In this document: piece after piece, positions 11,290-49,372 of the stretch
Numbering within the stretch: position 1 is the stretch's first letter
Layout of the letters: each line of letters begins with the position of its first letter
DNA from: an uncultured Victivallales bacterium
GTDB lineage: Bacteria; Verrucomicrobiota; Kiritimatiellia; UBA8416
Assembly (NCBI GenBank): GCA_964523995.1
Contig: CAZGBW010000001.1
Location: 1-50,482, forward strand
DNA length: 50,482 nucleotides
Direction: 5' to 3'
The notes under the pieces: model-generated
Told to the model about the DNA's origin: nothing
Seen by the model: only the letters and a program-made list of their open reading frames with translations
The model's database searches: none
Position numbers and translations under genes: made by a program

Positions 11290-11291
11290 GC

Positions 11292-19441: not shown

Positions 19442-20335
19442 TCACCTGATGATGATCGTCATCCCGGAAGGGGGAACCGGGATGTTCGTGATGACAATAT
19501 CGTCGATGCTGCCCTGATCGCGCGACCGAAGGAAGAGCGTCTTGAAGTCCGTGGGCGCGAAACCGGAAGGCAGTTCCAAGGCCATGGCCTGCATGCCGGC
19601 AACCGCCGTCCATGTGCCCGATGGCACGAGTGGATTGCCGCTGTATTGGTCGATAAAGAAGGACGCGGTGCCTGCCACCAGGTCGACCGTCAGCAGGCAG
19701 TCGAAATACAGGTAGCCGCCGCCGATGATCCCGTTCGTGGTATCGTTGTTCGCATCCGATGTGAACCGCCAACTGGCAAGGCTGCTCCCAATCACGATAA
19801 ACGGTGCGCCGCTGGCATCACCGAGCCCCAGTTGACTGATACGGCTCGATCCGGCAACCGAGTACCATGCGACGCTGAAGGCCTTGACGCCTTTGACTAA
19901 AGGCCATGCTGCATCACCGCTACAGGCCCGATAGGCCGTGGCAATATCGGCCCCCGTACTCGAGGACCAGGTGCCGGCAGAGACGTTGCCACCGGTGGTA
20001 CCGCGAGCTCTCATACCCGACAACAGCGTCTGCGTGCCTACCCACCCGTCCTGTCCGGCGAGAAACGCGTCGCCTCCTGTCAGATGATCGAAATCATACG
20101 TGAAGAAGGACGGCACGGTCGCCGTGGCCGTAAAGGTCAACGGTGACCCTCCCAGACCTACGCTCGTAGCCGTCGCCGTCTGCCCACCTGCCTGCTGTCC
20201 CAGAGTCCAGGTGGCTGTCGCGATCCCATTCGTATCCGACAGCACCGGATTTACACTGCCTAACGACCCGCCGCCGGTCGCCGCGGCGAAGATAATCCCC
20301 ACGCCGGCAACAATGATCCTCACCGGCGCTGCCAC
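19442..20335 (-). CDS. Ig-like (Big-type) domain plus lectin/LamG-like beta-sandwich segment; in frame with the upstream 703-aa ORF across a single TAG
   Basis: The track ORF starts at GTG 20335. The frame is open back to TAG 20357-20359 (AQRGYAP codons). GVGIIFAAATGGGSLGSVNPVLSDTNGIATATWTLG..SPLTFTATA is mid-to-C-terminal Big-domain sequence, not a signal peptide. The tail ends ..IDDIVITNI. Confidence 0.55.
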   Translation of the reverse strand: MAAPVRIIVAGVGIIFAAATGGGSLGSVNPVLSDTNGIATATWTLGQQAGGQTATATSVGLGGSPLTFTATATVPSFFTYDFDHLTGGDAFLAGQDGWVGTQTLLSGMRARGTTGGNVSAGTWSSSTGADIATAYRACSGDAAWPLVKGVKAFSVAWYSVAGSSRISQLGLGDASGAPFIVIGSSLASWRFTSDANNDTTNGIIGGGYLYFDCLLTVDLVAGTASFFIDQYSGNPLVPSGTWTAVAGMQAMALELPSGFAPTDFKTLFLRSRDQGSIDDIVITNIPVPPSGMTIIIR

Positions 20336-20356
20336 CGGCGCGTACCCACGCTGTGC

Positions 20357-22468: not shown

Positions 22469-22547
22469 CGTGAACCTCCGCGTTGCGTGTTGATGACCTC
22501 CGCGCTACGGCGGCGGCGTGCCGGCGAGGGCGTGGCATCTGCACGTA

Positions 22548-22577
22548 ATTGTAGCGCACGCCGACCACGGGTGTCAA
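22548..22577 (-). promoter_or_regulatory. near-consensus sigma70-like promoter TTGACA-18-TACAAT (copy 1)
   Basis: rc of 22572-22577 is TTGACA and rc of 22548-22553 is TACAAT. It lies about 80 nt upstream of ATG 22468, inside the duplicated unit. Confidence 0.5.
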
Positions 22578-22592
22578 CGGAAAAGTTGCTCT

Positions 22593-22790
22593 TTATTGAT
22601 ATCCTGTCAAACTCACACTCGTAGCCGTCACCGTCTGCCCACCTGCCTGCTGTCCCAGAGTCCAGGTGGCTGTCGCGATCCCATTCGTATCCGACAGCAC
22701 CGGATTTACACTGCCTAACGACCCGCCGCCGGTCGCCGCGGCGAAGATAATCCCCACGCCGGCAACAATGATCCTCACCGGCGCTGCCAC
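22593..22790 (-). pseudogene. truncated duplicate of the 5' part of the Ig-like segment (65 codons)
   Basis: Matches the first ~58 codons of 19442..20335 apart from one Ala-to-Val change (the g/a mismatch). It diverges at the duplication junction 22617/22618 and stops at 22593. Confidence 0.7.
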
Positions 22791-22811
22791 CGGCGCGTAC
22801 CCACGCTGTGC

Positions 22812-24923
22812 CTATCGAAACAGGAAGACCGTTCCACGGGGTACGAACGGCGAGTAATCGACCGTCAGCAACGGGTGCCAGGAAGGATTCGCATGTTCTT
22901 TTGTGGCGAAGCCCAGCCGGGTCGCGCTGGTGTTGAGGCTGTTCAGATAAAAGCCGGCGTTCACGCCGCCGTGGGCCCACGATTCGAGAAGCGCCAGGTC
23001 GAATGCGTTCGTGATGGTGAAGGTCAGTGTCTGGCCGATGGTGACGGCGTCGACCTGGGGCACGTAGACTTCCGAGGCCACGGAGGCCAGACTCGCATTG
23101 GTCTCGGCAGGCCCGGGAGTATTGGGGTGGCTCGCGTTCCCTCCGAGCAGATCGCCGGCGGCCCACGGATCGCTTGCGTACTTGCGATACCCGCCGCAGG
23201 CCTCACCCGTCCCAGCCGTCGTGCCGTTCTTCGTCCCCTCGACCCAGTCGGCATCGACATCGCGGATTGTGTAGAGCGCGAAGGTGTTGGCCCCGGTGCC
23301 GTACTTCCCGCTAACGGTCAGCGTCAGGTCTGCCGAGGTGATCGCGCTGAACCGGCCGGCGAGGTTGGTGATGCTCCTGAACCGGAGGATGGCGCAATGG
23401 TTGGGGAAGAAGATGGTCTTGCCCACATACATTTCGGTGCTGATCCCGTAGTTGTTGTTATCGCCCCCCACCGTGGGCTGCTCGTTCGGGTTGAGTCGAC
23501 AATCATCCGAGGGGAAGAAGCCTTCCAGCGTTGTCGCGCTTGCCACGGCGCTCACGGCGGAAGTGTTGCCCGCCGCATCGTATGCGCTCAGCTGGTAGGC
23601 ATAGGTGGTGGACGGTACCAGTCCCGTGTCCGTGTAGCTCGTGCTCGCTGTCGTATCGAGCGGAACCCCATCGCGCAGGATGCTGTACCCGGTGACAGCG
23701 ATGTTGTCGGTCGAGGCGTCCCAACTCAGCGCGACCTCGGTGGCCGACAACCCCGTGGCCGTGAGATTCGAGGGAACGCTGGGCGCCTGCGTATCCGGAG
23801 GGAACGTCTGAGCACTGGCAACGGCGCTCACGGCAGAGGTATTCCCCGCCGCATCGAATGCCTGCACCTTGTAGGCATAGGTCGTGGCCGGCGAAAGGCC
23901 GGAATCCAGGTAGTTCGTTTCCGTGGTCGTATCGATCGGGGCATCGTCGCGCAGGATGCTGTACCCGGCAACGGCGAAGTTATCGGTCGAAGCGTTCCAG
24001 GTCACGGCGATGTCGCTGCTTGTCAACGCTGTCGCCGTGACGTTCGCCGGAATGCTTGGCGCTTCTGTGTCGGCGCTGATCGGCGTGTACGTGATCTCCA
24101 GCTTGGGGTGCGAGGAGCTGGTGGCGTGCTCTTTCGTGGCGAAGGCGAGCCGCGTTCTGCTGGTATTAAGGCTGTTAATGAAGAAGCCGGCATTCGCATC
24201 GCCGTTAGCCCAGGATGTGAGGACTGCCAGGTCATCGGGGTCGCTGATGCTGAAGCTGACCTCTTGACCATTGGTGACCGTGCTCATATTGGGGATAAGC
24301 ACCTGATCGACAATGGAGGCCAGGCTGGCATTCGTGACGGCCGTGCCGGCCGTGCTGGCGGTGACGCCCTTGCCAAGCAGGTCACCGCCTGCCCAGGAGG
24401 TCGTGTTGAACTTTCTGTAGTGGCCACAATTCTGGCCAACCGCGGCCGTTGTGCCATTCATGGTCCCTTCGATCCAATCCGCGTCAACATTGCGGATCGT
24501 AAACAGCACGAATGTGTTCGGCTTGTTGACTTCGTTAATGTAGACGCTATCGACCGTCAGGGTCAGGGTCGCCGAATCGATTGAGGCGAATTCCCCGGCC
24601 AAAGCCGAGACATCGAAGCGCATGATTCCGCAAAAGTTTGCAAAGAAGGCAGTCTTTCCAACCAGCATCGTGGTGGTAATGCCGTAGTTATTGTTGTCGC
24701 CGGTTTCGTTGCCCTGGGGGTTGACGGGGTTGAGCCGGCAATCGGCCGAGGCGGGAAAGTTCGTCGTGTCCGCCTTAGCGGCCAGGGGTGCGAGCACGAC
24801 GCATCCCGCCAGTGCCAGCGCCGTGACAACCCGTGGCACGCTCCCGGCGGCGCCGAGACCGTGATGGACGGCGCTCCCTGCTCTCAGAGCCTTCCAAGTG
24901 CCCTGCATTTCTTGATGCCTCAT
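22812..24923 (-). CDS. secreted DNRLRE/CBM96-like + 2x FN3 + DNRLRE/CBM96-like surface protein (copy 2, identical 703 aa)
   Basis: Translation is identical to 20357..22468. Confidence 0.85.
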   Translation of the reverse strand: MRHQEMQGTWKALRAGSAVHHGLGAAGSVPRVVTALALAGCVVLAPLAAKADTTNFPASADCRLNPVNPQGNETGDNNNYGITTTMLVGKTAFFANFCGIMRFDVSALAGEFASIDSATLTLTVDSVYINEVNKPNTFVLFTIRNVDADWIEGTMNGTTAAVGQNCGHYRKFNTTSWAGGDLLGKGVTASTAGTAVTNASLASIVDQVLIPNMSTVTNGQEVSFSISDPDDLAVLTSWANGDANAGFFINSLNTSRTRLAFATKEHATSSSHPKLEITYTPISADTEAPSIPANVTATALTSSDIAVTWNASTDNFAVAGYSILRDDAPIDTTTETNYLDSGLSPATTYAYKVQAFDAAGNTSAVSAVASAQTFPPDTQAPSVPSNLTATGLSATEVALSWDASTDNIAVTGYSILRDGVPLDTTASTSYTDTGLVPSTTYAYQLSAYDAAGNTSAVSAVASATTLEGFFPSDDCRLNPNEQPTVGGDNNNYGISTEMYVGKTIFFPNHCAILRFRSITNLAGRFSAITSADLTLTVSGKYGTGANTFALYTIRDVDADWVEGTKNGTTAGTGEACGGYRKYASDPWAAGDLLGGNASHPNTPGPAETNASLASVASEVYVPQVDAVTIGQTLTFTITNAFDLALLESWAHGGVNAGFYLNSLNTSATRLGFATKEHANPSWHPLLTVDYSPFVPRGTVFLFR

Positions 24924-25002
24924 CGTGAACCTCCGCGTTGCGTGTTGATGACCTCCGCGCTACGGCGGCGGCGTGCCGGCGAGGGCGTGGCATCTGCACG
25001 TA

Positions 25003-25032
25003 ATTGTAGCGCACGCCGACCACGGGTGTCAA
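25003..25032 (-). promoter_or_regulatory. near-consensus sigma70-like promoter TTGACA-18-TACAAT (copy 2)
   Basis: rc of 25027-25032 is TTGACA and rc of 25003-25008 is TACAAT. Confidence 0.5.
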
Positions 25033-25279
25033 CGGAAAAGTTGCTCTTTATTGATATCCTGTCAAACTCACAAAAGTCCACGGATCACCGCTGGAGTATA
25101 TGGAACGTGCTGTACTATAAGCACTTAACATACACTTAGCTCCGAGACTCAATAACACTTAGAGCGATGAATTGGGGAATATTCAGCCCTTTTTGGACAC
25201 GCGAGCCGGTCCCGTATGCTCTCGAGCAGGCGTGCGGCCGTCTGAGACCTCACCTGCGTGCATCTGTTGCGGCGGGAGG

Positions 25280-32192: not shown

Positions 32193-33245
32193 TCATCCCG
32201 AGTAATGGCCCGCGTAACGCTCCATGGCATCCATCAGCGCACCGGCATTGGACAGAGGCACTCCGGGATACATGCCGTAGATCATCAATAATCCCCCGCG
32301 GCTGGACCCCAGTTTCTCGACCTCGGTCCGGATCAGGCGGTCGATCGCCACGGCCGTTCCGCGCGCGGTGATGTCCTGGCGGTCGATGTCGAGATCAATG
32401 CAGACGCGCCCGGCGAATCTCTGCGCGATCCAGTCGACGCCGTTCACCAGGTCCTGCAGGTTGATGACGTCCACCCCGCCTTCGACGAGGTCATCGGCCA
32501 GCGTGCGGATGTCCCCGTCGGAATGCATGTGGACGATGCAGCCACGGTCGCGCACCGGTTTCATCAGCCGGGTGTAGACGGGTTGGATAAAACGGCGGAA
32601 CAATTCCGGCGACAGCATCGGCCCGACCTGCATACCAAGGTCTTCCGGAAAGCTCATCAGGTCCGGCTCCAGTTCCATCCAGTGCCGCACGTACTGCTCG
32701 TTGAAGTCGGCAAGATGCTCAATGAGACGGAGCAGGCGCGGTTCCCCGTCCAGCATGTCGAAGAGCAGGTTCTCATAGCCCCGGATATCCTGGAGCCGCA
32801 GGAAGGTGTGGCCATGCGGCAGTCCACCCATCACGATCTGGCCCGCCGCCTTCTGCCTCTGCACCCGGCGATGCACATCCCCCCAGTCCACAGGGAAGGT
32901 CCCATCGGTCACGCCCGGATCCGGAATGCGGTAGCCCTCGAACGCCGCCCAGTCCGCCAGCGGATGCCCGTGCACGGAACCGGTGATCCCGTCCTCGCAG
33001 GTCTGCCAGACACACCCCCAGGAATCGGTGTACGGGGCATCCCGGAGCTGATTTGGCAGGTAGCTCGGCGTCACGGTCGCGCGCCGCGCAAAATTCGGGA
33101 ACAGGAACGGATGCGCTTCCATCAGGTCCTGCAAGGCGGTCTGGTCATAATGGTGCCAGCAGGCCCCGTTGATGTGGAAAGTCATCGGGATCCAATCCGG
33201 AGTTTCGAATCGGATTGCCCTCAGTGTGTTCTCTCGTGGTGTCAT
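32193..33245 (-). CDS. uroporphyrinogen decarboxylase (URO-D)-like family protein, function in this context unknown
   Basis: 350 aa. N-terminal RENTLRAIRFETPDWIPM and HMHSDGDIRTLADDLVEGGVDVINLQD resemble the URO-D/MtaA TIM-barrel family. The start overlaps the upstream stop (ATGA). Confidence 0.6.
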   Translation of the reverse strand: MTPRENTLRAIRFETPDWIPMTFHINGACWHHYDQTALQDLMEAHPFLFPNFARRATVTPSYLPNQLRDAPYTDSWGCVWQTCEDGITGSVHGHPLADWAAFEGYRIPDPGVTDGTFPVDWGDVHRRVQRQKAAGQIVMGGLPHGHTFLRLQDIRGYENLLFDMLDGEPRLLRLIEHLADFNEQYVRHWMELEPDLMSFPEDLGMQVGPMLSPELFRRFIQPVYTRLMKPVRDRGCIVHMHSDGDIRTLADDLVEGGVDVINLQDLVNGVDWIAQRFAGRVCIDLDIDRQDITARGTAVAIDRLIRTEVEKLGSSRGGLLMIYGMYPGVPLSNAGALMDAMERYAGHYSG

Positions 33246-36244
33246 CGCGATACTCCCCTTGCGACACGTCCTTCCCTGCGACGGCGGAGCGCAAGCAATG
33301 CTTCTACATCAACATTCAAAAGATCCTTCCGGGATTGGTCTGCAAGAACATGGCCCGCAGCCGACCCGACGGCCAGGCATGGCATGCCCGCCGCGTGCGC
33401 CGCCTCCACCCCGGCAGCCGCATCCTCGATCACAAGACAGCGCGACGGCGCGACTCGGAGCGCCTTGGCCGCCCTGTGAAAAACCTCGGGGTCTGGCTTT
33501 GAATGGACGATGTCATTCCCGTTGACAACGGCATCGAAGGCACTCGCGAGGCCGATGCGCTCCAGAATCGTGCCCGCGTTTCGACTAGAGGAGGCGACGG
33601 CCGTCCTGATCCCGCGCTCGCGCAGGCGGTCGAGAAGCAGCATGACACCGGGCAGGATGTCGCGCCCGTCGAGCGTCGACAGCAGGGCGCGGTACGTCTC
33701 GTTCTTGCGATCCGCCATGGCCTGCCGCTGCGCCGGCAGATAATCTCTTCCCGCCTTTTCCAGGAGAATCGACAGGCTCTCCATGCGGCTGACACCGCGC
33801 AACCGTTCATTGACAGCAACATCGAAGGGGATGCCCTCGCTGTCCGCCAACGCTTTCCACGCCCGGTAGTGAAGCCCGTCCGTGGACACGACCACGCCGT
33901 CGAGGTCGAACAACACGGCGCGGATGGGGGTTGTCGGTCGCGGCCTGGACCGGGGCGGCGGCAGGCGCCAGTCCCCCGCCAGAGACAACGCCTGCCCGGG
34001 ACGCAGCGTCCGCCTCCGCCCGCCAATCTCGAGAGGGATGGCGCTTCCGGAGCCCTCGACCGCGATATCCAGCCGCTCGGGCGTGACCGCGAAGCGCAGC
34101 CGCACCCCGTGGTAGAGCGTACTGAACGCCAGTGACTTCCAGTGCCTGGGCAGACGGGGTGCCACCGACAGGTGGTCGGGCATCACGCGCACGCCGCCGA
34201 AGCCGGACACGATCGCCGACCAGCCCGCTCCCAGACAGGCGGCGTGCAATCCCGCGTCCGTGCTGTCGCCGCGACGGCAACCGTCGACCTCGCAGGCCAT
34301 GCGCAGGTAGGGATAGGCTTTTTCAGGACGCCCGCAATCGAGGCTGAAAAGAACATGCAGCGCCGGCGAGAGACTCGACGCATGCAGGGTCACGGGAAAG
34401 TAGCGGTTGAAGTTGCGCAGGAAGATCTCCGGCGAGCTGAGCTCCGGAAGGAGATGCAGCAGCAGGAGCACGTCGGCCTGCTTGATCTGCTGTCGCGGAT
34501 GGCTGAAGTACCCATCGAACTGCTCATAGATCCCCGTCGCGGAATCAAAGCCTAGTGGCAAACGGTCCGCGATGTCGCGCCAGCGCCGCCGCTCCGCCCG
34601 CTTCACGCCGTGTTGCCTCAGGAATGCGCGATACGCCCTGGGACGTTCCTCGGCACAGCGGTCGAGGAGATCCGCCGCCCACCGCAGGTTCCAGGCTGCC
34701 ATCGCGTTCGTGTAGACGCTATTGTTGACATCGGAGTGATACTCGTCCGGACCGATGACGTTGCGGATATGACAGGCGGATCCAGTGACACCGCCTGTTT
34801 CCGCGACAATAGAGGCCCAGTAGCGGGCCGTCCCGACCGCCGTCTCGAGCGCCGGGCCGTAGAGCAGCGCCGTGTCACCCGTGGACAGGATGTGTTGATG
34901 GTATCCCATCGGCACGTCGGCATTGATGTGAATCTCCTGCTCGCCGCCACGCCAGCGGAAATAGCCACCCCTGCTGAGTGGCAGCCACCTCGGGCATTCC
35001 TCGCGGCCTGTCTCCGCGGACTCCCATGGGAACTGCACGCCCTCGGCACCGCTTGCAGCGGCGTTGGCACGGGCAGCATCCAGACGGTCGTACCGGTACT
35101 TGAGCAGCGACTCGGCGATGTCCGGGAACTGCTGGCTGAAGAACGGCAGCATGTAGATCTCGGTATCCCAGAAAATGTGCCCGTTGTAACCGGGTCCCGT
35201 GAGTCCCTTGGCCGGAATGCTGGCACTCAGCCCGAGCCGCCAGTTGTGGAGGGAGGCCGACTGCAGAAGCTGGAAGACAAAGAACCGCGCCATGGTCTGC
35301 GCCATGCGGTCGCCCTTGATTCCAATGTCGGCGTCCCGCCAATAGGCGGACCATTCCTCCGCATGCTCACGCGCAAGCGCGGAAAAACCGGGGCATGCGG
35401 CGACCTCGGCATGAACCGCGCTCAGCGGGTCCTTCTGGCGCAGATCGTTCCGGATGCTGACGACCTTCTCGACGGTGTATGTCCGACCCTGCTCCGCATG
35501 AAATGTCAGGGCAACGCCGGCCAGGTGTGCATCCCGTACCGGTCGCTCCGTAAACGACGCGTCCGCGCGGCCCGCGTGGAACGCATGCCTGGCGGCCACA
35601 GCCACGCCGATCCCGGTCTGCAGCGAACGCAGGGCATACCAGGCCGTGCATTCATCCGACCCCGAATCGGTCTGTCGCGTCTGCACGATGCCATCGGGAT
35701 ATCCCCCGCGAGCATCCAGCAGCGAGGACACGGTCAACGTACCCGAGTAGTTCAAGGGCGTAATGCGATACCGGATCGCCACGATGTTCGGACGGCTCTG
35801 ACTGACCAGGCGGCAGGATTCAATACGCGTCCGACGGTTCATTGCATGCACGAAACGGGTCACCCGCTTCAACGTGCCCGCACGCATGTCAAGTGTGGTT
35901 GTTTCTTCTTCCGGCGCAACCGCCGGGTCCGTGACGAGCGTGTCCCCGTCAAACAGGCGCATGGCGAAAACGTTGGGCAGGTTCACCAGTCGTGACGGGC
36001 GCCGATACTTGGGCGGCTCGTCCTGCTGCCGGGCAGGGCGTCCGTACACTTCGGCCATCAGCGTCATCGGCAGGTCAGGCGGCGCCGGGTCGGCCTCTTC
36101 GCGAGAGCCGCGGATGCCAAGGAGCCCGTTGCCAAGCGTGAACACGCTCTCCCAGTACGCCCGCTCCTCCGGCCGCGGCGAGGAGCACACGATCTTCCAG
36201 CCCCGCAGAGGCGAGGTGTCAACGGGCCGTCCGGTGCTCTTCAT
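33242..36244 (-). CDS. GH65 glycoside phosphorylase (kojibiose/maltose/trehalose phosphorylase family) fused to beta-phosphoglucomutase (HAD)
   Basis: 1000 aa. GH65 N-terminus WESVFTLGNGLLGIRGSREE and catalytic block GHIFWDTEIYMLPFF. C-terminal ~220 aa has VLFDLDGVVVSTD, RGVSRMESL, SKPDPEVF and IEDAAAGVEAAHAAGM, the beta-PGM HAD motifs. Confidence 0.9.
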   Translation of the reverse strand: MKSTGRPVDTSPLRGWKIVCSSPRPEERAYWESVFTLGNGLLGIRGSREEADPAPPDLPMTLMAEVYGRPARQQDEPPKYRRPSRLVNLPNVFAMRLFDGDTLVTDPAVAPEEETTTLDMRAGTLKRVTRFVHAMNRRTRIESCRLVSQSRPNIVAIRYRITPLNYSGTLTVSSLLDARGGYPDGIVQTRQTDSGSDECTAWYALRSLQTGIGVAVAARHAFHAGRADASFTERPVRDAHLAGVALTFHAEQGRTYTVEKVVSIRNDLRQKDPLSAVHAEVAACPGFSALAREHAEEWSAYWRDADIGIKGDRMAQTMARFFVFQLLQSASLHNWRLGLSASIPAKGLTGPGYNGHIFWDTEIYMLPFFSQQFPDIAESLLKYRYDRLDAARANAAASGAEGVQFPWESAETGREECPRWLPLSRGGYFRWRGGEQEIHINADVPMGYHQHILSTGDTALLYGPALETAVGTARYWASIVAETGGVTGSACHIRNVIGPDEYHSDVNNSVYTNAMAAWNLRWAADLLDRCAEERPRAYRAFLRQHGVKRAERRRWRDIADRLPLGFDSATGIYEQFDGYFSHPRQQIKQADVLLLLHLLPELSSPEIFLRNFNRYFPVTLHASSLSPALHVLFSLDCGRPEKAYPYLRMACEVDGCRRGDSTDAGLHAACLGAGWSAIVSGFGGVRVMPDHLSVAPRLPRHWKSLAFSTLYHGVRLRFAVTPERLDIAVEGSGSAIPLEIGGRRRTLRPGQALSLAGDWRLPPPRSRPRPTTPIRAVLFDLDGVVVSTDGLHYRAWKALADSEGIPFDVAVNERLRGVSRMESLSILLEKAGRDYLPAQRQAMADRKNETYRALLSTLDGRDILPGVMLLLDRLRERGIRTAVASSSRNAGTILERIGLASAFDAVVNGNDIVHSKPDPEVFHRAAKALRVAPSRCLVIEDAAAGVEAAHAAGMPCLAVGSAAGHVLADQSRKDLLNVDVEALLALRRRREGRVARGVSR

Positions 36245-39700: not shown

Positions 39701-40017
39701 AATACGTTGACCCTGTCATGCTATGGCAGGCCATTCCGCGCGCACACGGCCAGCTAAACACCTAATCCAAGGTTGAAATGGTCACGCGGCAGGCCAAGCG
39801 CCTTCGGTTGCAAGACCAGAGGCGCGACATGACTTACGTGATCGTGGGGGAGTCTAGAAGCTGCGAACGGTTACGTCAATAATAATAAATATCTATCCAT
39901 GACATCAGGTGCCGGAATGTTACAATTCGTATTTAATAAAGCCTATCCGTGAGAACCAGGCAGATCAAAGTCACGATCAACTAGGACAAGAATAGACACA
40001 TTCACCGATTATTCTAT

Positions 40018-40047
40018 TGACTGTCCAAACCCGACGTGATTACTATG
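40018..40047 (+). promoter_or_regulatory. sigma70-like promoter candidate TTGACT-18-TACTAT
   Basis: Hexamers at 40018-40023 and 40042-40047, at the end of an AT-rich island and ~75 nt upstream of ATG 40121. Confidence 0.4.
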
Positions 40048-40120
40048 CTTGTGTTTGTACAGCAATCTGAATCCGGAAGGTGACGTAACGCCTGCAGGAT
40101 GGGGCGGGAGACCGATCGCG

Positions 40121-40888
40121 ATGGAACATGCCAATATGTTTGTGTGGGTGGTCTTCGCCGCCTTCCTGTCGGCTATCTTGTACAACGTGCGGCGGATGCG
40201 CGCCGGGCGGGAGGTCTTCCTGCGGAGGATCACCGGTCTGGAAGTTGTCGAGGAGGTGATCGGCCAGGCGACCGAACAGGATCGACCGATCATGTTCAAT
40301 CCCGGTTTTGGCGGTATCGGGATAGAGTTGTTCTGCTCTCTGGCCGTGATGGGGCACGTGGTGCGACGGGCGGCCAGGCTGTCAATGCCGGTGCTGGCCC
40401 CGCTGGCCGATCCGCTGGCATACGCCATGGCCGAGGAGTACTGGAAGGACGGCTACGCCGCCGAAGGCAAGGAGGGCATGTTTCCGGTCGAGGATTGCCT
40501 GCGTTACCTTTCGAACAATCAGGCCGCTTACGCCGCGGGCGTCGCGGGCTGGATCAAGCGCGACAAGGTGGGCGCGAATCTGATCTTCGGTGAGTACGGA
40601 TTCGAGGCGCTTGTCATTGCCGAGGCGGGGCAGCAGGCCGGGGCGGTGCAGATCGCCTGTACGCCGAGCTTCTTCCAGGTCCCGTTTTTTGTTGTCTCAT
40701 GCGATTACACGGTATTCGGGGAGGAGTTTTACGCGGCGGGCGCGTACTTCAGTCGTGATCCGGTCCTGACAGGCAGCCTGATCGCGCAGGATTGGGTCAA
40801 GCTGCTGCTTCTGCTTGTTGTCCTGGCGGGTGTGGCCAGCCTGTCCCTGTTTGAGAGCGAATGGGTGAACGCTCTGCTGTACTGGTAA
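40121..40888 (+). CDS. bitopic membrane protein (N- and C-terminal TM helices bracketing a soluble domain), unknown family
   Basis: ORF from 40049, with the start moved to ATG 40121 because the first ATG sits on the putative -10. TM helices FVWVVFAAFLSAILY and WVKLLLLLVVLAGVASLSLF. First gene of a tightly coupled array. Confidence 0.65.
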   Translation: MEHANMFVWVVFAAFLSAILYNVRRMRAGREVFLRRITGLEVVEEVIGQATEQDRPIMFNPGFGGIGIELFCSLAVMGHVVRRAARLSMPVLAPLADPLAYAMAEEYWKDGYAAEGKEGMFPVEDCLRYLSNNQAAYAAGVAGWIKRDKVGANLIFGEYGFEALVIAEAGQQAGAVQIACTPSFFQVPFFVVSCDYTVFGEEFYAAGAYFSRDPVLTGSLIAQDWVKLLLLLVVLAGVASLSLFESEWVNALLYW

Positions 40889-40899
40889 CGAGGAGCGGT

Positions 40900-42495
40900 G
40901 TGAACCGACGAACATTTCTTAAAACACTAGCCTTCACGGTAGGTCTCTACTTTGTCCTTAATTTCCTCCTGCCGGAGAAACTGGGGGGCGATTTCGATAG
41001 CTACAATGTGCACTCGCCGACGGCCGTGCAAACCCCGGACGGAACGGTTGTGCTCTACGTCGGGCAGTACAGCAGCAAACTTGCCGCGGTTGGACGGTTG
41101 CAACCTGCGCCGTTGGGAAACACGGGGATGACCAGGATGCCAGACCACCCGGTACTTCGGCGTTCCCTGTTCATCCCGGACGACCAGCATGGAATGGCAC
41201 AGTTGGATGCGGTTGTGAGCGCGGGCAGTATTGAACTTTTCTACATGGGGATCGACCGCGAGAACCGGCTCACGCTGTGCCGCGCCACCGGGAACATGGC
41301 GGGAACCGAATGGAGCAAGCAGTCGCCGCCGCATTTCCGTACCTCGATGGAACACCCCCCGGCCACGCAACCCGGAGTCTATCGCAACGGATTGCTCGGG
41401 GGGACGCTTGAGTTCTTCGCCGTGGACAAGGCCGATGACACCTGGCGTTTTGTCCTGCTGATCAAATCGCCGATCCGGGGCCGGGAAATATGGCTGGCGA
41501 CCGCCACAGACCTGCAAGACCTCCGGCTTGCCCCGCAGCCACTTGTGACCGCCCACGACATCCCGCTTAATTTCACCGCATTCGATGCCCATTCCGGCCA
41601 GGATGGATGGACGTTGTTTTTTGCTTCCGAGCGCGATCTGATCTCGCTGCCGGTCGCAGCTCCGGCAGACGCCTCGCGTCGTACACTTCTACCCGATGGC
41701 CAGCGGGCGACGGGGTTGAGGCTGGAGCCCGATGCAGGGATGCTGTACCTTTCAACCTCCGCTTACCGACCATCCGGGACGCCCCCTGAAGAGTCCGCGG
41801 TGGAGACGCGGCTCGCCGCGCTGGAGATATCCGACCAGGGGCAACCGGATACGCTGCACACGACCGGCAAGCCCCCTGTGCCGACATACCTGGGACGCGG
41901 TATGCAAATGGCCGGCACGTTCCTGCAGATCATCGGCGCCATGGCCCTGTTCATCGCGGTCATCAACCTGTCGCTTTTTCACGGCAAGACACTGACGAGC
42001 CGCAGGAAGGGGTGGCCCAACAGCCTGGTCTTCTTCATTTTCCTGATCGGAATGTTCGTCGTGACCCTCATGGGAAAGGGCATGGCGGGCGGCGAAGCGC
42101 TGGACTCCGGCTGGGGGCTGGCCTATGACTTCCTCTTCCAAAGCATTGTGCAGGCAATGGGGACAGCCGTCTTCTCGATGATTACCTTCTTCATGATTTC
42201 AGCGGCCTATCGCTCCTTCCGTGTGCGCAGCCTGGATGCCGCCCTGCTGATGGCGGCGGCCTGCATCGTGATGGTCGGGCAAATGCCGCTGGGCGAGTGG
42301 CTCGGGATGATCGTGCCTGATTCGCTCTTTTTCCTGCGTTTTCCCTGGCTGAGCCAGAAACTGCTGACGGTGATCAATGCCTGCGCCTACCGCGGAGTTC
42401 TCATCGGTTTGACCGTGGGGGCCATCTCGATTGCAATCCGGATCTGGCTCGGAATGGACAACAGCGTGTATTCAGGGCTGGAGGGTAAGTCATGA
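40900..42495 (+). CDS. membrane protein: Tat-like RRTFLK N-terminus, beta-rich ectodomain, C-terminal 5-6 TM bundle; unknown family
   Basis: GTG 40900 lies 4 nt after GAGGAG and 11 nt after the upstream TAA. The N-terminus reads (M)NRRTFLKTLAFTVGLYFVLNFLL. C-terminal hydrophobic helices run from FLQIIGAMALFIAVINLSLF onward. Confidence 0.7.
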   Translation: MNRRTFLKTLAFTVGLYFVLNFLLPEKLGGDFDSYNVHSPTAVQTPDGTVVLYVGQYSSKLAAVGRLQPAPLGNTGMTRMPDHPVLRRSLFIPDDQHGMAQLDAVVSAGSIELFYMGIDRENRLTLCRATGNMAGTEWSKQSPPHFRTSMEHPPATQPGVYRNGLLGGTLEFFAVDKADDTWRFVLLIKSPIRGREIWLATATDLQDLRLAPQPLVTAHDIPLNFTAFDAHSGQDGWTLFFASERDLISLPVAAPADASRRTLLPDGQRATGLRLEPDAGMLYLSTSAYRPSGTPPEESAVETRLAALEISDQGQPDTLHTTGKPPVPTYLGRGMQMAGTFLQIIGAMALFIAVINLSLFHGKTLTSRRKGWPNSLVFFIFLIGMFVVTLMGKGMAGGEALDSGWGLAYDFLFQSIVQAMGTAVFSMITFFMISAAYRSFRVRSLDAALLMAAACIVMVGQMPLGEWLGMIVPDSLFFLRFPWLSQKLLTVINACAYRGVLIGLTVGAISIAIRIWLGMDNSVYSGLEGKS

Positions 42496-43376
42496 CGGTG
42501 CCGGTTGACCGAAAACTGGGGTTCTGGGACCGCGTTCAGCAGGCCGATCCGCGTATACTTTACCTGCTGTTTGCCGTACTGATGATTGCCCTTGAGTTTC
42601 GGACGGTGTCGATTCCAACGCCTGTACCGGCCTATGTCCAGCGCCTGTATGACCATATCGAGAGCATGCCGGCTGACAAGATCGTGATCCTGGACAGTTC
42701 CATGGATGCCGGCTGGTTCGCTGAAGCCAGAGGCACGGTTGAAAGCGTCGTCCGTCACCTGTTCCGCCGGGGCATTCGTTTTGCCGTCTTTACCAATACA
42801 ACCTATTATCAAGGGCAGCAACTGGGACCGCAGATCATCAATCCCATTGCCCGCGAGATGGGCAAGACGTACGGTGTGGATTACTGTGTCTGGGGAGCGG
42901 TGGTGCTGGCACAAGGGGCCACGCTCCAGGCCGTGGCTCGTGATTTCGCGGGACAGGTCAAGGTGGACATGTTCGGCACGCCTCTGGCGGAAGTGCCGAT
43001 GATGCGCCAAGTCCGCGACATTCGCGATGTGGGCCTGGTCTACTCTGTCTGCTACGGGTGGGAAGGTATCCAATGGATCGGGTTTATCCAGGCGGTCTAC
43101 GGCACGCCTTATGCCGTGGGGACGTCGGCCATATCCTCGTCAACGGCATTCCCGTATATTGACTCGCATCAGATGATCGGGCTTCTGCCGGGGGCATCCG
43201 GCGCGGCGAGCTATGAACGGCTGCTCGATGAACCCGGCAGCGGGACCAGAATCGTGGCGGTACAGTCCTTGGCCACGCTGTATGTCGTGCTGGCCATCTT
43301 GCTGGGCAATGTGGCCATGGGACTCGCGCGGCTGCAAGCCGGGCGAACAGCACGCCGCGGGAAGGAGCGACTATGA
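42492..43376 (+). CDS. bitopic membrane protein with central soluble domain, unknown family
   Basis: ATGA overlap with the upstream stop. TM helices ILYLLFAVLMIALEF and LATLYVVLAILLGNVAMGLA. Basic C-terminus. Confidence 0.7.
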   Translation: MTVPVDRKLGFWDRVQQADPRILYLLFAVLMIALEFRTVSIPTPVPAYVQRLYDHIESMPADKIVILDSSMDAGWFAEARGTVESVVRHLFRRGIRFAVFTNTTYYQGQQLGPQIINPIAREMGKTYGVDYCVWGAVVLAQGATLQAVARDFAGQVKVDMFGTPLAEVPMMRQVRDIRDVGLVYSVCYGWEGIQWIGFIQAVYGTPYAVGTSAISSSTAFPYIDSHQMIGLLPGASGAASYERLLDEPGSGTRIVAVQSLATLYVVLAILLGNVAMGLARLQAGRTARRGKERL

Positions 43377-44200
43377 GTACGGCATGGAAGCAACGGGCAG
43401 TGGTGTTCGCCGGGATCGCGCTCTTTATCATGCTGGCCTGGAACGAGCACCGGATCGTCCGGATACTTCTCAGCGACGGGGTTCCGCTATCAACGGTGGC
43501 TTACCAGCGCGGCATCATATGGCTGGGTGCATTGGGCACGCTGGCCGTCTACTCGTTCCTGATCCGCTCGAATCCATTCTACCATCTCTTTGAACACGCG
43601 CTGCTTGGCTGTGCCACGGGGATGGGTATCGCGATCGCGCTACAGGATGCGCTTATCGCCAGATGGTGGCTGCCGATGACGGCTGGATTCCGTTTGCTCG
43701 CCAGCGAGGGCATGTCGCCGGAAGCCATGAACGGGGTCGTGCTGCTGATTCCAGGCGCGATCGGGTTGCTGTGGTATTTCCAGTTCTCGAAGCGCTTCTT
43801 CTGGATCAGCCGTATTCCCATGGTAATCGGTCTCGGGGCCGGGGCCGGATTGGCGTTCAAGGATATGTTCAACCGCATCCTTCCCCAGATCTCCGGAACG
43901 CTCAAGACCCTTTGGCCGCGGGAGGCCGTGCTTCCCGGTGCCGGTAACTGGGCGCGTGCCGCCGTGGGCGCTGAGAACCTGATCTTTGTCGTCGGGACCC
44001 TGAGTGTCCTGGCCTACTTCTTCTTCGCGTTTGGCCGCAACACGGTCGCGGTACGGGCACCGGCCCGCCTAGGGCGTTGGTATCTGATGCTCTCGCTCGG
44101 TGCCTTCTTCGGAAACACCTTCATGTCACGCCTGAGTGCGCTGATCGAACGTGTGCATTTTCTCTGTTCCGAATGGTTGCGATGGAGTGCTTTATGGTAA
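43373..44200 (+). CDS. polytopic (~7 TM) membrane protein, unknown family
   Basis: ATGA overlap with the upstream stop. Hydrophobic helices throughout (VVFAGIALFIMLAW, IIWLGALGTLAVYSFLI, VVLLIPGAIGLLWYF, LIFVVGTLSVLAYFFFAF and others). Confidence 0.7.
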   Translation: MSTAWKQRAVVFAGIALFIMLAWNEHRIVRILLSDGVPLSTVAYQRGIIWLGALGTLAVYSFLIRSNPFYHLFEHALLGCATGMGIAIALQDALIARWWLPMTAGFRLLASEGMSPEAMNGVVLLIPGAIGLLWYFQFSKRFFWISRIPMVIGLGAGAGLAFKDMFNRILPQISGTLKTLWPREAVLPGAGNWARAAVGAENLIFVVGTLSVLAYFFFAFGRNTVAVRAPARLGRWYLMLSLGAFFGNTFMSRLSALIERVHFLCSEWLRWSALW

Positions 44201-44484
44201 AGACATGCTTGTCGAACGAGGAACGGACGGCCTTGGTTGAGCGCATTGCGGGCTGGTCGCTGCGCCTGGGCATCGCCCCGATGGTCGTGTTCCTGGTCGA
44301 GTGCAACCGGCCGCTCGCGCCGCTCACCGCAAACATGCTGATCGGCGCGGGTTCCCTTGCGGAAACATTACTGCCGTTGCCGCTGCGCGACCTGGGGCTA
44401 CTGCTGCTGGATGACGACGTTGCAGCCGCCTTGCGAAAGCGCATCGACACGATCACCGCCACGGAGGAGCAACTTGCATCATGA
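44194..44484 (+). CDS. small (96 aa) hydrophobic protein, unknown family
   Basis: ATG 44194 overlaps the upstream stop (ATGGTAA). It ends in an ATGA overlap with the next gene. One or two hydrophobic segments (LGIAPMVVFLV, LTANMLIGAGSLAETLL). Confidence 0.5.
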   Translation: MVKTCLSNEERTALVERIAGWSLRLGIAPMVVFLVECNRPLAPLTANMLIGAGSLAETLLPLPLRDLGLLLLDDDVAAALRKRIDTITATEEQLAS

Positions 44485-46298
44485 TCGGTGAACAACCCTA
44501 TATGCCCGGAAAAACACCTTGCGTGCTGCTTGCCACCGACTGCGGATCAACCACCACCAAAGCCATTCTCGTTGTACGGGAACCAGACGGTACGTACCGC
44601 CTCGCTGCCCGCGGCGAAGCGCCGACCACCGTTGAGGCGCCCTTCGATGATGTCACCGTGGGCGTTTATAATGCCATGGAGGAGATCGAGGTGATCACCG
44701 GCCGCCGCCTGCAGCGGGACGGGAAACTTATCTGCCCGATGGAAGGGAACGATGGGGTCGATGCCTATTTCTCAACCTCCAGCGCCGGCGGCGGACTGCA
44801 AATGGCCGTGACTGGCGTCATTTCGAGTATCACGGCGCAGAGCGCCCAGCGCGCCGCGCTCGGGGCCGGGGCGATTGTGATCGATACGCTGACGATCGAT
44901 GATGACCGGCCGCAGCACGTCCAGATCGATGCCTTGCGGAAACTTCGGCCGGATATGATCCTGATGGCCGGTGGGGTTGACGGTGGCACGTGCCGGCATG
45001 TGGAAATGCTGGCGGAACTCATCCGTGGTGCCCGCCCGCAGCCGCGATTTGGACAGAACTTCGCCCTTCCCGTGATCTTCGCCGGCAATCGTGAGGCACG
45101 CGCCATCGCGGGTGAGATGCTCGATACGGTGGCCGCGATGCGCTATGTCGACAACGTGCGCCCCGGGATTGCGCGCGAGAACCTGGGCGAGGCCCGCCAG
45201 GCCATTCACGAACTGTTCCTCGAACACGTCATGCAGCAGGCTCCGGGATACAACAAACTCATGGCCATGACCTCCGCTGATATCATGCCGACGCCAAATG
45301 CCGTAGGGTTGATTGTCAAGGACGTGGCCCGCGCACGCGACCTGAATGTGCTAGCCGTCGATATAGGCGGCGCGACAACCGACGTGTTCAGCGTCTTCGA
45401 TGGGCAGTTTCACCGAACTGTGAGCGCAAACTATGGAATGAGTTACAGCCTGTGCAATGTCATGTCGGAGGCCGGAACCGCGAACATTCTGCGGTGGCTT
45501 CCTTTCCCGTTCCCCGAATCCCTTTTGCGTGATATCCTGCGGAATAAAATGGTCCGGCCGACCACTATTCCGGAAACCCTTGAGGAGCTCCATGTTGAAC
45601 AGGCGGCCGCCCGCGAAGCCCTGCGCCTCTCGCTGGAGCATCACCGCTCCCTGGCTGTCCACCTCCAAGGCGGCGGGACCGGTAAAAGCATCTCGCATCT
45701 GTTCAAGGCCGATGAAGAGACTCTCGTGGACATGATGGCTCTTGATCTCTGTATCGGGTCGGGCGGCGTACTCAGCCACGCGCCGGACCGCGCGCAGGCA
45801 TTTCTGATCATGCTTGACGCATTCGGACTTGAAGGGGTGACCCAGTTGGCCGTGGACAGTATTTTCATGATGCCGCAGCTCGGTGTCATGGGACAATTGG
45901 TTCCCGAGGCGGCACGCGAGGTGTTTGAGAAAGACTGCCTTCTGCCGCTCGGCACAGCCATCGTACCCGTCGGGATCACGAAACACGGGCGACACGTCAT
46001 GTCCGTGGCCGTCACCGGCAGTGATGACCGCATTGAAACGCATACTATCACATCTGGAGAACTGCGACGGCTGCCCCTGGCTGTCGGTGTGAAAGCATGG
46101 GTGCGGATCAATCCGTCTCGGCATTTTGATGTCGGAGCGGGCCGTGGTAAAGTTCTTGAAACCGAGGTGCATGGCGGTTTGGTGGGCCTTGTCCTGGATG
46201 GGCGGGGACGCCCCCTGGTATTCGCAGAGGATGCAGGCGTCAACGCCGGACGGCGCCGCCGGGATTACGAGGCGATGAACCTGAACCTGGAGGCATAG
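44481..46298 (+). CDS. GlmL/MutL-family (glutamate mutase L-like) ASKHA-fold protein
   Basis: 605 aa. Motifs LATDCGSTTTKAIL, SSAGGGLQM, MAGGVDGGT and LAVDIGGATTDVFS, the actin/Hsp70/sugar-kinase fold signatures in GlmL-like order. No signal peptide or TM helix. Confidence 0.8.
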   Translation: MIGEQPYMPGKTPCVLLATDCGSTTTKAILVVREPDGTYRLAARGEAPTTVEAPFDDVTVGVYNAMEEIEVITGRRLQRDGKLICPMEGNDGVDAYFSTSSAGGGLQMAVTGVISSITAQSAQRAALGAGAIVIDTLTIDDDRPQHVQIDALRKLRPDMILMAGGVDGGTCRHVEMLAELIRGARPQPRFGQNFALPVIFAGNREARAIAGEMLDTVAAMRYVDNVRPGIARENLGEARQAIHELFLEHVMQQAPGYNKLMAMTSADIMPTPNAVGLIVKDVARARDLNVLAVDIGGATTDVFSVFDGQFHRTVSANYGMSYSLCNVMSEAGTANILRWLPFPFPESLLRDILRNKMVRPTTIPETLEELHVEQAAAREALRLSLEHHRSLAVHLQGGGTGKSISHLFKADEETLVDMMALDLCIGSGGVLSHAPDRAQAFLIMLDAFGLEGVTQLAVDSIFMMPQLGVMGQLVPEAAREVFEKDCLLPLGTAIVPVGITKHGRHVMSVAVTGSDDRIETHTITSGELRRLPLAVGVKAWVRINPSRHFDVGAGRGKVLETEVHGGLVGLVLDGRGRPLVFAEDAGVNAGRRRRDYEAMNLNLEA

Positions 46299-46301
46299 CG
46301 C

Positions 46302-47417
46302 ATGGGAACAGCATTCACCCCCGGTTTGACGATTACGGAACAGGCGACCATCCGAAAAACTCGTCGCTTGCCGGTTCGCGGCGAGGTGCTGGTTGGTGCG
46401 GGTGCACGGGTCTCTTCGGATACGGTCGTGGCGCGCGTTGACATTCCCGGTCCGCTGGCAGTTGCAAAAGCCGCGCAGAAACTGGGCTGCGCACCTGAAC
46501 AACTGCATAGGCACTGCACGGTCAAGGAAGGCTCGCATGTTGATCGCGACCAGGTGATTGCGCAACGTTCCGTATTTTTCGGGCTCATTACGAATCGTTG
46601 CCACAGTCCGCGATCGGGGACCGTCGAGTACGTATCGCAATTATCGGGCAATATAGGTATCCGGGCTGCTCCTCGCCCCGTGACCTGTGCCGCCTATATC
46701 AGTGGTATCGTGACAGAGGTCCTGCCCGGTGAAGGGGTTATTATCGAAACCAACGGTGCTTATGTGCAAGGCATATTCGGCGTGGGTGGTGAGCGCCACG
46801 GGAGGCTGTGCTGGATCGGCAACGGACGGGACACCTTGCGCGGTGACGATATAAAGCCACAACAGGCGGGCACGATCCTGATGCATGCAGGTCGCATTGA
46901 CGCGACGGCCTTGCCCGCCGCGGTCGAGCACAATATCCTTGGCATCGTCGGAGCCAGCATGGTCGATTCGGAACTCATGGATTTCCTCGGATTTAATATC
47001 GGAGTTGCGATCACCGGCGAGGAGGCTATTCCGTTTTCGCTTATCCTGACAGAAGGCTTCGGGCAAATGTCCATGCCGACGCGCACGGAAGAATTGCTGA
47101 CCTCACTCGACGGCATGGATGCCGCCATCAATGGGGCTACGCAGATCCGGGCCGGCGTCATCCGCCCGGAGATCATCGTACCCCGCGCCGGTCTTCCGGG
47201 GAAAACAGTGGTATTCGGATGCCCGTTGGAAGTCGGTGTAAGGGTACGACTTATACGCCGTCCTGGATTCGGGCGGGCGGGCACGGTAACGTCCCTGCCT
47301 GAGAAGCCGATGATCATTGCGTCTGGCTCGAATGTGCGGGTCCTAAAGATTACCCTTGACGACGGCATGGAAGTAATCGTGCCCCGATCCAACGTGGAAA
47401 TTCTCAGTACCCCTTGA
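46302..47417 (+). CDS. soluble protein with barrel-sandwich-hybrid-like N-terminal half and KOW-like C-terminus (tentative), unknown family
   Basis: 371 aa. GGAGG lies 8 nt upstream and the start is 3 nt after the upstream stop. GEVLVGAGARVSSDTVVARVD and VKEGSHVDRDQVIAQ resemble lipoyl/hybrid-barrel hairpins. C-terminal VRLIRRPGFGRAGTVTSL is KOW-like. Confidence 0.65.
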   Translation: MGTAFTPGLTITEQATIRKTRRLPVRGEVLVGAGARVSSDTVVARVDIPGPLAVAKAAQKLGCAPEQLHRHCTVKEGSHVDRDQVIAQRSVFFGLITNRCHSPRSGTVEYVSQLSGNIGIRAAPRPVTCAAYISGIVTEVLPGEGVIIETNGAYVQGIFGVGGERHGRLCWIGNGRDTLRGDDIKPQQAGTILMHAGRIDATALPAAVEHNILGIVGASMVDSELMDFLGFNIGVAITGEEAIPFSLILTEGFGQMSMPTRTEELLTSLDGMDAAINGATQIRAGVIRPEIIVPRAGLPGKTVVFGCPLEVGVRVRLIRRPGFGRAGTVTSLPEKPMIIASGSNVRVLKITLDDGMEVIVPRSNVEILSTP

Positions 47418-49295: not shown

Positions 49296-49372
49296 TGGTG
49301 CACCTGGCGAGGATCGAACTCACAACCTTCGGCTTCGGAGGCCGACGCTCTATCCAATTGAGCTACAGGTGC
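49296..49372 (-). tRNA. tRNA-Arg (anticodon CCG), CCA encoded
   Basis: The minus strand reads GCACCTG-TA-GCTC-AATTGGATA-GAGC-G-TCGGC-CTCCGAA-GCCGA-AGGTT-GTGAG-TTCGATC-CTCGC-CAGGTGC-A-CCA. Full cloverleaf, 77 nt. Confidence 0.9.

Follow-up and report, generated by a model that had tools for sequence, protein, structure and literature searches.

In DdrA/DdrB and EutA, an ATP/ADP cycle acts on another protein complex, and a role as an ATP-driven reactivase has been shown for the diol-dehydratase reactivase DdrAB and proposed for GlmL. In eukaryotes, mtHsp70 at TIM23 and BiP at Sec61/63 are ASKHA-fold ATPases that dock on a membrane channel and supply the driving force for polypeptide clients. 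We analyzed a stretch of 50,482 nucleotides from an uncultured Victivallales bacterium (GenBank assembly GCA_964523995.1, contig CAZGBW010000001.1, positions 1 to 50,482; hereafter the window), in which an operon of seven genes, here called g1 to g7, joins a membrane module, g1-g4 and often g5, with a second module consisting of the ASKHA-fold protein g6, a relative of GlmL, and its soluble partner g7. We tentatively read g6/g7 as an ATP-driven cytoplasmic module that would act via g1/g5 on a membrane complex in transport or envelope-directed work, a reading that we consider a real possibility, if somewhat short of probable. A literature search retrieved no relevant paper on DUF6754, PF13941, TIGR01319, IPR006230 or GlmL together with ASKHA, and the operon matches no known system.

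The seven genes form a single, tightly coupled operon. A preliminary description of this DNA had reported seven co-directional genes that overlap or nearly abut, and the coordinates, gaps and overlaps of all seven plus-strand open reading frames (ORFs) were confirmed. From g1 to g7 the intergenic gaps are 11, -4, -4, -7, -4 and +3 nt. The overlapping stop and start codons read ATGA at 42492, 43373 and 44481 and ATGGTAA at 44194, and a GGAG-like Shine-Dalgarno sequence lies upstream of every start. The GC content at third codon positions (0.63-0.79, compared with 0.41-0.49 at second positions) follows the pattern of real genes. When all seven products were searched against Pfam and NCBIfam (E <= 0.1) and PADLOC (E <= 0.01), the only significant families were DUF6754 and MutL, and there were no matches to ATP-binding cassette (ABC), P-type, Sec, type II to type IX secretion or PADLOC defence proteins. 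Profile searches with all seven products, and Foldseek searches with g1 and g7, placed none of the products other than g6 in a characterised system, the outcome on which the preliminary description had made its proposal depend. It had also noted that mutase genes, a transporter ATPase and secretion components are missing; none is present in the operon, and neither glmS/glmE nor any other B12 gene or B12-dependent mutase was found in the 19 flanking ORFs of the window that were scanned.

The sixth gene, g6 (44481..46298, plus strand), encodes a putative nucleoside triphosphatase (NTPase) of 605 amino acids, identified by its Pfam family and its motifs. It matches Pfam MutL (PF13941) over residues 17-486 with 369 bits (cutoff 27, E 4e-110), above the gathering score, and its nucleotide-binding motifs are intact, which bears out its initial reading as a MutL/GlmL-type ASKHA protein. 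DCGSTTTK, GGVDGG and DIGGATTD are present and invariant in an alignment of 27 homologues, as are VDIGGATTDVF and GSGGVLSHAP; we read DCGSTTTK, VDIGGATTDVF and GSGGVLSHAP as the putative phosphate-1, phosphate-2 and adenosine motifs of the ASKHA fold. Because these glycine-rich and DxG motifs are kept and invariant across homologues, g6 looks like an active NTPase. It scores below the NCBIfam cutoffs for GlmL (NF040745, 189.4 against 475), Or-4 of the ornithine pathway (NF040744, 181.3 against 600) and TIGR01319 (148.4 against 204) and thus, judging by profile scores, belongs to a distinct and highly conserved subfamily of PF13941. At the C-terminus, a conserved, beta-rich stretch of about 120 amino acids extends the protein and carries the motif GG..G...D.RGRP. 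The homologues that were listed and aligned share 56-73% identity and are mainly named as Armatimonadota, and the window protein is 56-62% identical to the homologues so named. The only Pfam families detected in g6 were MutL, Hydantoinase_A and Hydant_A_N, the similarity to hydantoinase A being weak; at E <= 0.1, Pfam returned no Hsp70, DDR, EutA, actin, MreB or FtsA match, and sequence and profile searches of the PDB found no relative. Several homologues of the subfamily (for example, P0032, P0047, P0057 and P0112) bear the source names 'glutamate mutase L' or 'methylaspartate mutase'. No mutase genes were found at the loci that we inspected, and the labels are probably a propagated misannotation.

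The partner of g6 is encoded by g7 (46302..47417, plus strand; 371 amino acids), which we characterised from an AlphaFold2 model, Foldseek and a weak profile match. In the model (predicted local distance difference test (pLDDT) 87.5), the N-terminal half is beta-rich and is followed by an alpha/beta domain (about residues 180-295) and a small barrel at the C-terminus. Only this barrel found matches in Foldseek, to KOW domains of NusG/Spt5 (probability 1.0, TM-score 0.8 over about 55 residues, target TM-scores of 0.65-0.84, with E values of only about 1e-2), and no PDB entry matched the whole chain. The modelled tail therefore appears to be a KOW/Tudor-like SH3 barrel by fold, which does not imply membership of the NusG family. 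As for the N-terminal half, g7 matches RnfC_N (PF13375) weakly (E 1e-3, 19.6 bits against a cutoff of 25.6), and several homologues carry precomputed RnfC_N or biotin/lipoyl-type (PF00364) matches, while the top 50 Foldseek hits are dominated by KOW domains and include neither RnfC nor NqrA. The beta-rich half may be a barrel-sandwich hybrid; of the hybrid barrel and KOW tail first proposed for g7, the tail is thus borne out by structure comparison, whereas the signals for the hybrid barrel are weak. PDB sequence and profile searches with g7 gave no match. The first nine residues, MGTA(F/Y)TPGL (46302-46328), are essentially invariant across phyla and are modelled as disordered (pLDDT < 50), a combination that hints at a peptide used for docking or a terminus that is processed. 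The g7 family has no name and is found in at least 568 species genomes, whose titles are mostly Armatimonadota, along with UBP3-like, rumen and Planctomycetota lineages.

The membrane module opens with g1 (40121..40888, plus strand; 255 amino acids), which is its most conserved subunit. Over its full length, g1 matches Pfam DUF6754 (PF20539) with 236 bits (cutoff 27, E 5e-70), so that the preliminary statement that all the membrane products were unclassifiable does not hold. The protein is predicted to have an outward N-terminus, a first transmembrane helix (TM1), a cytoplasmic Rossmann-like alpha/beta domain with the invariant residues E52, Q177, D195, E202 and D224, and a second helix (TM2). 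The AlphaFold2 model (pLDDT 88.6) likewise shows a six-stranded Rossmann-like domain between two transmembrane helices, of which the C-terminal one is long, and its Foldseek matches were limited to generic alpha/beta folds (Rossmann, SIS and PBP-like; best E 1.8e-3, TM-score <= 0.39). The outward N-terminus is supported by paralogues in which a signal peptide and a domain that reads as FN3-like precede TM1. Topology was assigned from models and the positive-inside rule, which support a cytoplasmic location for the DUF6754 domain and a periplasmic one for the domain of g3.

Downstream of g1, g2 (40900..42495, plus strand; 531 amino acids) encodes a polytopic membrane protein, recognised by alignment and hidden Markov models and belonging to no Pfam family. 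Its conserved core comprises TM1 and a C-terminal bundle of about five transmembrane helices with the motif FS..FY..SAAYRAFR.RS.EA, and its GTG start at 40900 is consistent with the N-termini of homologues. A beta-rich ectodomain of about 300 amino acids follows TM1 and, according to the alignment, is inserted in the window clade only; it matched no Pfam family, and one homologue gave a non-significant BNR_4 hint. The initial reading of g2 as a Tat-motif protein was rejected, as the NRRTFLK of the window is replaced by KR or KK in orthologues, so that the arginine pair is not conserved, and the hydrophobic stretch corresponds to TM1, which is conserved throughout the family. Next comes g3 (42492..43376, plus strand; 294 amino acids), a bitopic hairpin protein by hydropathy and alignment, with an inward N-terminus, TM1, a periplasmic domain of about 210 amino acids, TM2 and an arginine-rich cytoplasmic tail. 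No consistent Pfam match and no PDB match was obtained for g3. TrbL/VirB6 of type IV secretion was considered and discarded as an assignment, with a score of 19.5 against a cutoff of 25.9 and a match in just one of 33 g3 homologues.

The second polytopic protein, g4 (43373..44200, plus strand; 275 amino acids), was delimited by alignment. Its conserved core of about 215 amino acids carries the motifs ENP.YR..EH, YFFFS and GRW.LM..FGA.FG.T.M.R, to which the window clade adds an extra N-terminal transmembrane helix, and its relatives (E <= 1e-3) fall into 1140 representative clusters at 50% identity. Five of the listed representatives are fusions of g3 and g4 (P0362, P0390, P0414, P0434 and P0436), and in some homologues a loop holds an inserted BamB-like PQQ_2 beta-propeller or a Lyase_N/CBM-like domain (P0334, P0343; P0358). 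Neither g2 nor g4 shows a transporter family signature, and g1, g3 and g4 found no match when the PDB was searched by sequence and profile. The small protein g5 (44194..44484, plus strand; 96 amino acids), followed through hidden Markov model matches, gene maps and hydropathy, had been counted among the membrane proteins; it is moderately hydrophobic and has no clear transmembrane segment in a Kyte-Doolittle scan. We regard it as a candidate adaptor between the two modules. Comparisons with hhalign found no internal paralogy between g1 and g3, g2 and g4, g5 and the cassette protein c8 described below, or g7 and either g1 or g3.

In order to describe how these genes are distributed, we used 80 genome loci anchored on g7 (from at least 568 matches) and 80 metagenome loci anchored on g1 (from at least 487 matches). 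The operon had been called an orphan, yet its parts belong to large families, as the counts for g7 and g4 show. The gene set itself recurs outside this genome, but the order g1-g7 is restricted to the window clade (L008, L011, L012, L019, L020 and L092). In the g7-anchored set, g6 lies within 10 kb of g7 at 31 of the 80 loci, and membrane genes are present at six, four of them from the window clade (L011, L012, L019 and L020) and the others from metagenome-assembled genomes (MAGs) of Planctomycetota (L046) and Armatimonadota (L081). Both modules, with g6 or g7 present, occur at four of the 80 g1-anchored loci. Elsewhere the modules are mostly more than 10 kb apart, and some loci have g7 alone and others g6 alone. 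In GCA_026417575.1 the operon is split across contig ends.

The cassette itself is kept in the near-invariant order g1-g2-g3-g4, with both g2 and g3 at 39 of the 41 g1-anchored loci of at least 8 kb. Among these 41 loci, 19 have g5 and 17 have c8, both usually 5' of g1. The c8 protein, of about 150 amino acids, consists of a two-transmembrane hairpin and a cytoplasmic domain, stands ahead of g5-g1 (for example, at L096:2739-3206 and at 16 other loci) and is absent from the window. Where the modules are joined outside the window clade, the order is g5-g1-g2-g3-g4-g6-g7 in L046 and g6-g7-g1-g2-g3-g4 in L081, while in L163 g6-g7 is followed by three tandem paralogous cassettes (L163:2824-13057) and in L140 g7 is followed by three. 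Tandem triplication of g1-g4 was seen in L134, L140, L145, L163 and L169. Two of the three g1 paralogues in L163 have a clear N-terminal signal peptide and the FN3-like-reading domain; in the third, the N-terminal extension is shorter and signal-like. Conversely, the rumen/UBP3 MAGs L013-L018 (for example, L013:3003-12593) carry g5-g6-g7 without g1-g4; there, two membrane proteins of about 780-790 amino acids, one with a YfhO-like C-terminus, precede g5-g6-g7, and an uncharacterised protein of 472 amino acids follows. The genes neighbouring the cassette (LigA, AMMECR1, HD and MiaB-like) are housekeeping genes. TatC and a two-component system recur beside g7 in loci titled mostly Fimbriimonadales and look like lineage synteny. 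Among the recurrent neighbour clusters annotated from the 160 related loci there was no glmS/glmE family and there were no conserved catabolic genes.

These arrangements speak for a functional link between the modules, since different lineages join them in four gene orders. The six and four joint loci per 80 compare with a chance expectation of about 0.5% if the genes were unlinked (10 kb on either side, 4-Mb genome); in the window, g2 to g6 are translationally coupled. The small g5 gene moves between modules, being with g6-g7 in the L013-L018 group, where g1-g4 are absent, and with g1-g4 in most cassette loci, where g6-g7 are absent. Since the cassette order is near-invariant and g3-g4 fusions occur, the cassette appears to behave as a single complex. 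With its conserved cytoplasmic domain and outward N-terminus, g1 looks, in the model, built for docking. Because the extracytoplasmic decorations vary and the cytoplasmic parts are constant, we suggest that the working end is periplasmic and that the cytoplasmic face is a conserved docking platform. The sole nucleotide-dependent component of the operon is g6/g7, and a single g6-g7 beside three tandem cassettes is reminiscent of an energiser, or a maintenance factor, used in common.

In the mechanism that we propose, g1-g4, probably with g5, would make up a hetero-oligomeric inner-membrane complex, whose constant parts would be the cytoplasmic domain of g1, the transmembrane cores of the two polytopic subunits (g2 and g4) and the periplasmic alpha/beta domain of g3. 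Its variable parts would be extracytoplasmic additions, namely the g2 ectodomain in the window and, elsewhere, the FN3-like domain on g1 and the BamB-like propeller in g4. A cytoplasmic, ATP-hydrolysing g6 with g7 as its obligate partner would dock on the cytoplasmic face of this complex through g1 and/or g5, and nucleotide-driven closure of the g6/g7 domains would power or gate conformational work, relayed through the membrane to the periplasmic side. Such work would serve to transport or otherwise handle a substrate of the envelope or periplasm, perhaps a glycan, and a single g6/g7 pair might supply several paralogous cassettes. The physical docking, the hydrolysis of ATP, the coupling direction and the substrate are inferred here. 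A bolder version, in which the ASKHA ATPase and its barrel-sandwich hybrid/KOW partner are the dedicated energiser of an unrecognised class of inner-membrane machine built on the DUF6754 cassette, moving or remodelling an envelope substrate and possibly serving several interchangeable cassettes, seems to us speculative and rather unlikely.

Several observations weigh against an energised membrane complex. In most loci the modules lie more than 10 kb apart, and most g7-anchored loci, largely titled Armatimonadota, have no cassette nearby. The suggestion in the preliminary description of a membrane complex assembled or driven by an actin-fold NTPase is plausible, although the modules are usually separate and were found together at just those 6/80 and 4/80 loci. 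We know of no ASKHA protein that powers a bacterial membrane transporter, and GlmL and hydantoinase A, the nearest named relatives of g6, act in solution as accessory proteins or enzymes. The coupling of ATPase and membrane complex is proposed here from genomic inference, and the genes flanking the operon vary between loci and give no clue to a substrate.

The separation of the modules would suit a purely metabolic association, in which the cassette is a self-sufficient or secondary transporter or a membrane enzyme and g6/g7 a soluble ATP-dependent enzyme, kinase or hydantoinase-like, working on the same substrate in a shared pathway and forming no complex with it. The weak hydantoinase-A similarity of g6 and the conservation of g6 and g7 at a level typical of enzymes favour this explanation, and many small-molecule kinases are found among ASKHA proteins. 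We nevertheless think it unlikely, though worth keeping in view, given that g2 and g4 lack a transporter family signature, that the 160 loci show no conserved catabolic neighbours, that g5 alternates between the modules, and that the conserved cytoplasmic domain of g1 has no obvious role in a simple permease. To a similar degree we doubt that g6/g7 is a chaperone or reactivase, using ATP to maintain or assemble a client (the membrane complex here, another enzyme elsewhere) by opening or repairing it and not serving as a per-cycle motor. Such a factor would be in keeping with the shared Pfam family of g6 and GlmL/MutL, with the single g6/g7 pair adjoining three paralogous client cassettes and with the often solitary state of the pair in Armatimonadota; against it, g6 falls under the GlmL, Or-4 and TIGR01319 cutoffs, no B12 enzyme, B12-binding motif or cobalamin riboswitch was found nearby, and g7 resembles neither g1 nor g3, as mimicry of a subunit would require.

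If chance had brought together two unrelated conserved gene sets that are merely co-transcribed in the window clade, their separation in the majority of loci would be expected, whereas their union in four gene orders, the overlaps of 7 nt (g4/g5) and 4 nt (g5/g6) and the presence of g5 in both modules would not, and we consider this explanation improbable. Still less probable is a cytoskeletal role, in which g1-g5 would tether polymers of an actin-like g6 to the membrane and g6 would organise the envelope or cell shape like MreB with MreC and MreD. The ASKHA fold, the very high conservation of g6 (the 56-62% identity given above) and its linkage to bitopic and polytopic membrane proteins would fit, but g6 belongs to the hydantoinase-like MutL branch, to judge from its Pfam matches, and not to actin/MreB/ParM, its obligate partner g7 is not a filament protein, and the tools used gave no sign of polymerisation. 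Least credible of all, in our judgement, is that the database label is right and g6 is the GlmL of a glutamate (methylaspartate) mutase whose neighbours are incidental. The source names of homologues speak for it; the 189 bits against an equivalog cutoff of 475, the lack of glmS/glmE in the scanned window ORFs and in the annotated conserved neighbour clusters, the C-terminal extension of 120 amino acids and the dedicated partner g7 speak against it, and we know of no such extension or g7-like partner in clostridial glm operons. The annotation of the g6 subfamily as a component of glutamate or methylaspartate mutase is almost certainly wrong.

Both modules are abundant in poorly studied phyla, with no literature, no solved structure and no functional name beyond the misleading 'glutamate mutase L'. 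Should the two modules prove to be a single machine, they would provide the first example of coupling between a bacterial membrane complex and an ASKHA-fold ATPase, and a function would be gained for DUF6754 and for four or five unnamed families. If g6/g7 were moreover the dedicated energiser of the bolder version, a new primary energy coupling would join the ABC, P-type, rotary and AAA+/secretion ATPases at the bacterial membrane. Members of the family Capsulimonadaceae and the order Fimbriimonadales carry the system as well; both taxa have cultured representatives, and it should therefore be accessible to experiment.

The operon stands between a divergent gene for a NAGLU-family glycosidase and a convergent AraC-family gene, in a window mostly devoted to glycan degradation (GH20, GH32, GH65-HAD and a sugar ABC transporter). 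The divergent intergenic region of 420 bp 5' of g1 (39701..40120, plus strand) contains two sigma-70-like sites. The promoter first proposed, TTGACT-18-TACTAT at 40017-40046, is present but matches the consensus at 9 of 12 positions, and a stronger site with an upstream TG lies at 39899-39926 (10/12). A promoter scan found seven sites against 3.8 expected from shuffled sequences; with a 9/12 match in such a scan, the claim for 40017-40046 is weak. An Rfam search of the same region revealed no element, no cobalamin or other riboswitch was found 5' of the operon or in five related loci, and a scan 3' of g7 detected no intrinsic terminator.

Farther from the operon, the minus-strand gene at 33242-36244 encodes a fusion of 1000 amino acids between a GH65 glycoside phosphorylase and a HAD-family phosphatase/phosphomutase, within a glycosidase run that includes NAGLU, MGH1-like, GH20 and GDSL esterase genes. 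A near-perfect tandem duplication at 20148-25057, with units of 2455 bp that are 98-100% identical, could be recent or an assembly artefact; each copy encodes a 703-amino-acid protein with fn3, CBM96 and RGI-lyase-like domains (20357-22468 and 22812-24923, minus strand) and holds an internal 260-nt repeat of 74% identity. Two sugar ABC transporter proteins encoded at 8464-13181 are unusually long, namely a solute-binding protein of 941 amino acids, with SBP_bac_1 confined to residues 160-491, and a permease of 629 amino acids, with BPD_transp_1 confined to residues 464-614. The ORF of 672 amino acids at 17355-19373 has no Pfam match, and a tRNA gene (minus strand, 49299-49372; Rfam RF00005, 70 bits) lies directly 3' of a serC-like aminotransferase gene.

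Among described systems, GlmL/MutL (PF13941, NF040745 and TIGR01319) shares with g6 its Pfam family, the ASKHA core and the DxGSTxTK and DIGGATTD-type motifs. Unlike GlmL, g6 is about 140 amino acids longer, has a conserved beta-rich C-terminal domain, is paired with g7, is linked to a membrane cassette and was never beside mutase genes at the loci examined. DdrA/DdrB and EutA offer an analogy in their combination of a large ASKHA ATPase of about 600 amino acids with a smaller dedicated partner, although g6 has no DDR or EutA match, no B12 enzyme is nearby and g7 was unrelated to the flavodoxin-like DdrB in the searches run. RnfC and NqrA differ in that the operon has no Rnf/Nqr membrane subunits, flavin sites or Fe-S sites. 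The Hsp70-driven translocons are likewise comparable by analogy only, g6 having no Pfam Hsp70 match and the operon no J-domain or Tim44-like partner. Finally, no ABC, MacB_PCD, FtsX or MCE domain was detected that would relate the operon to the type VII ABC systems MacB, LolCDE and FtsEX or to MlaFEDB, and its candidate NTPase has the ASKHA and not the ABC fold. The resemblance to complexes of the MacB/Lol/FtsEX type, which we draw from architecture and which involves no detectable homology, would be one of logic: a cytoplasmic NTPase, polytopic subunits and subunits that carry a large periplasmic domain between or behind transmembrane helices, with work delivered to the periplasm.

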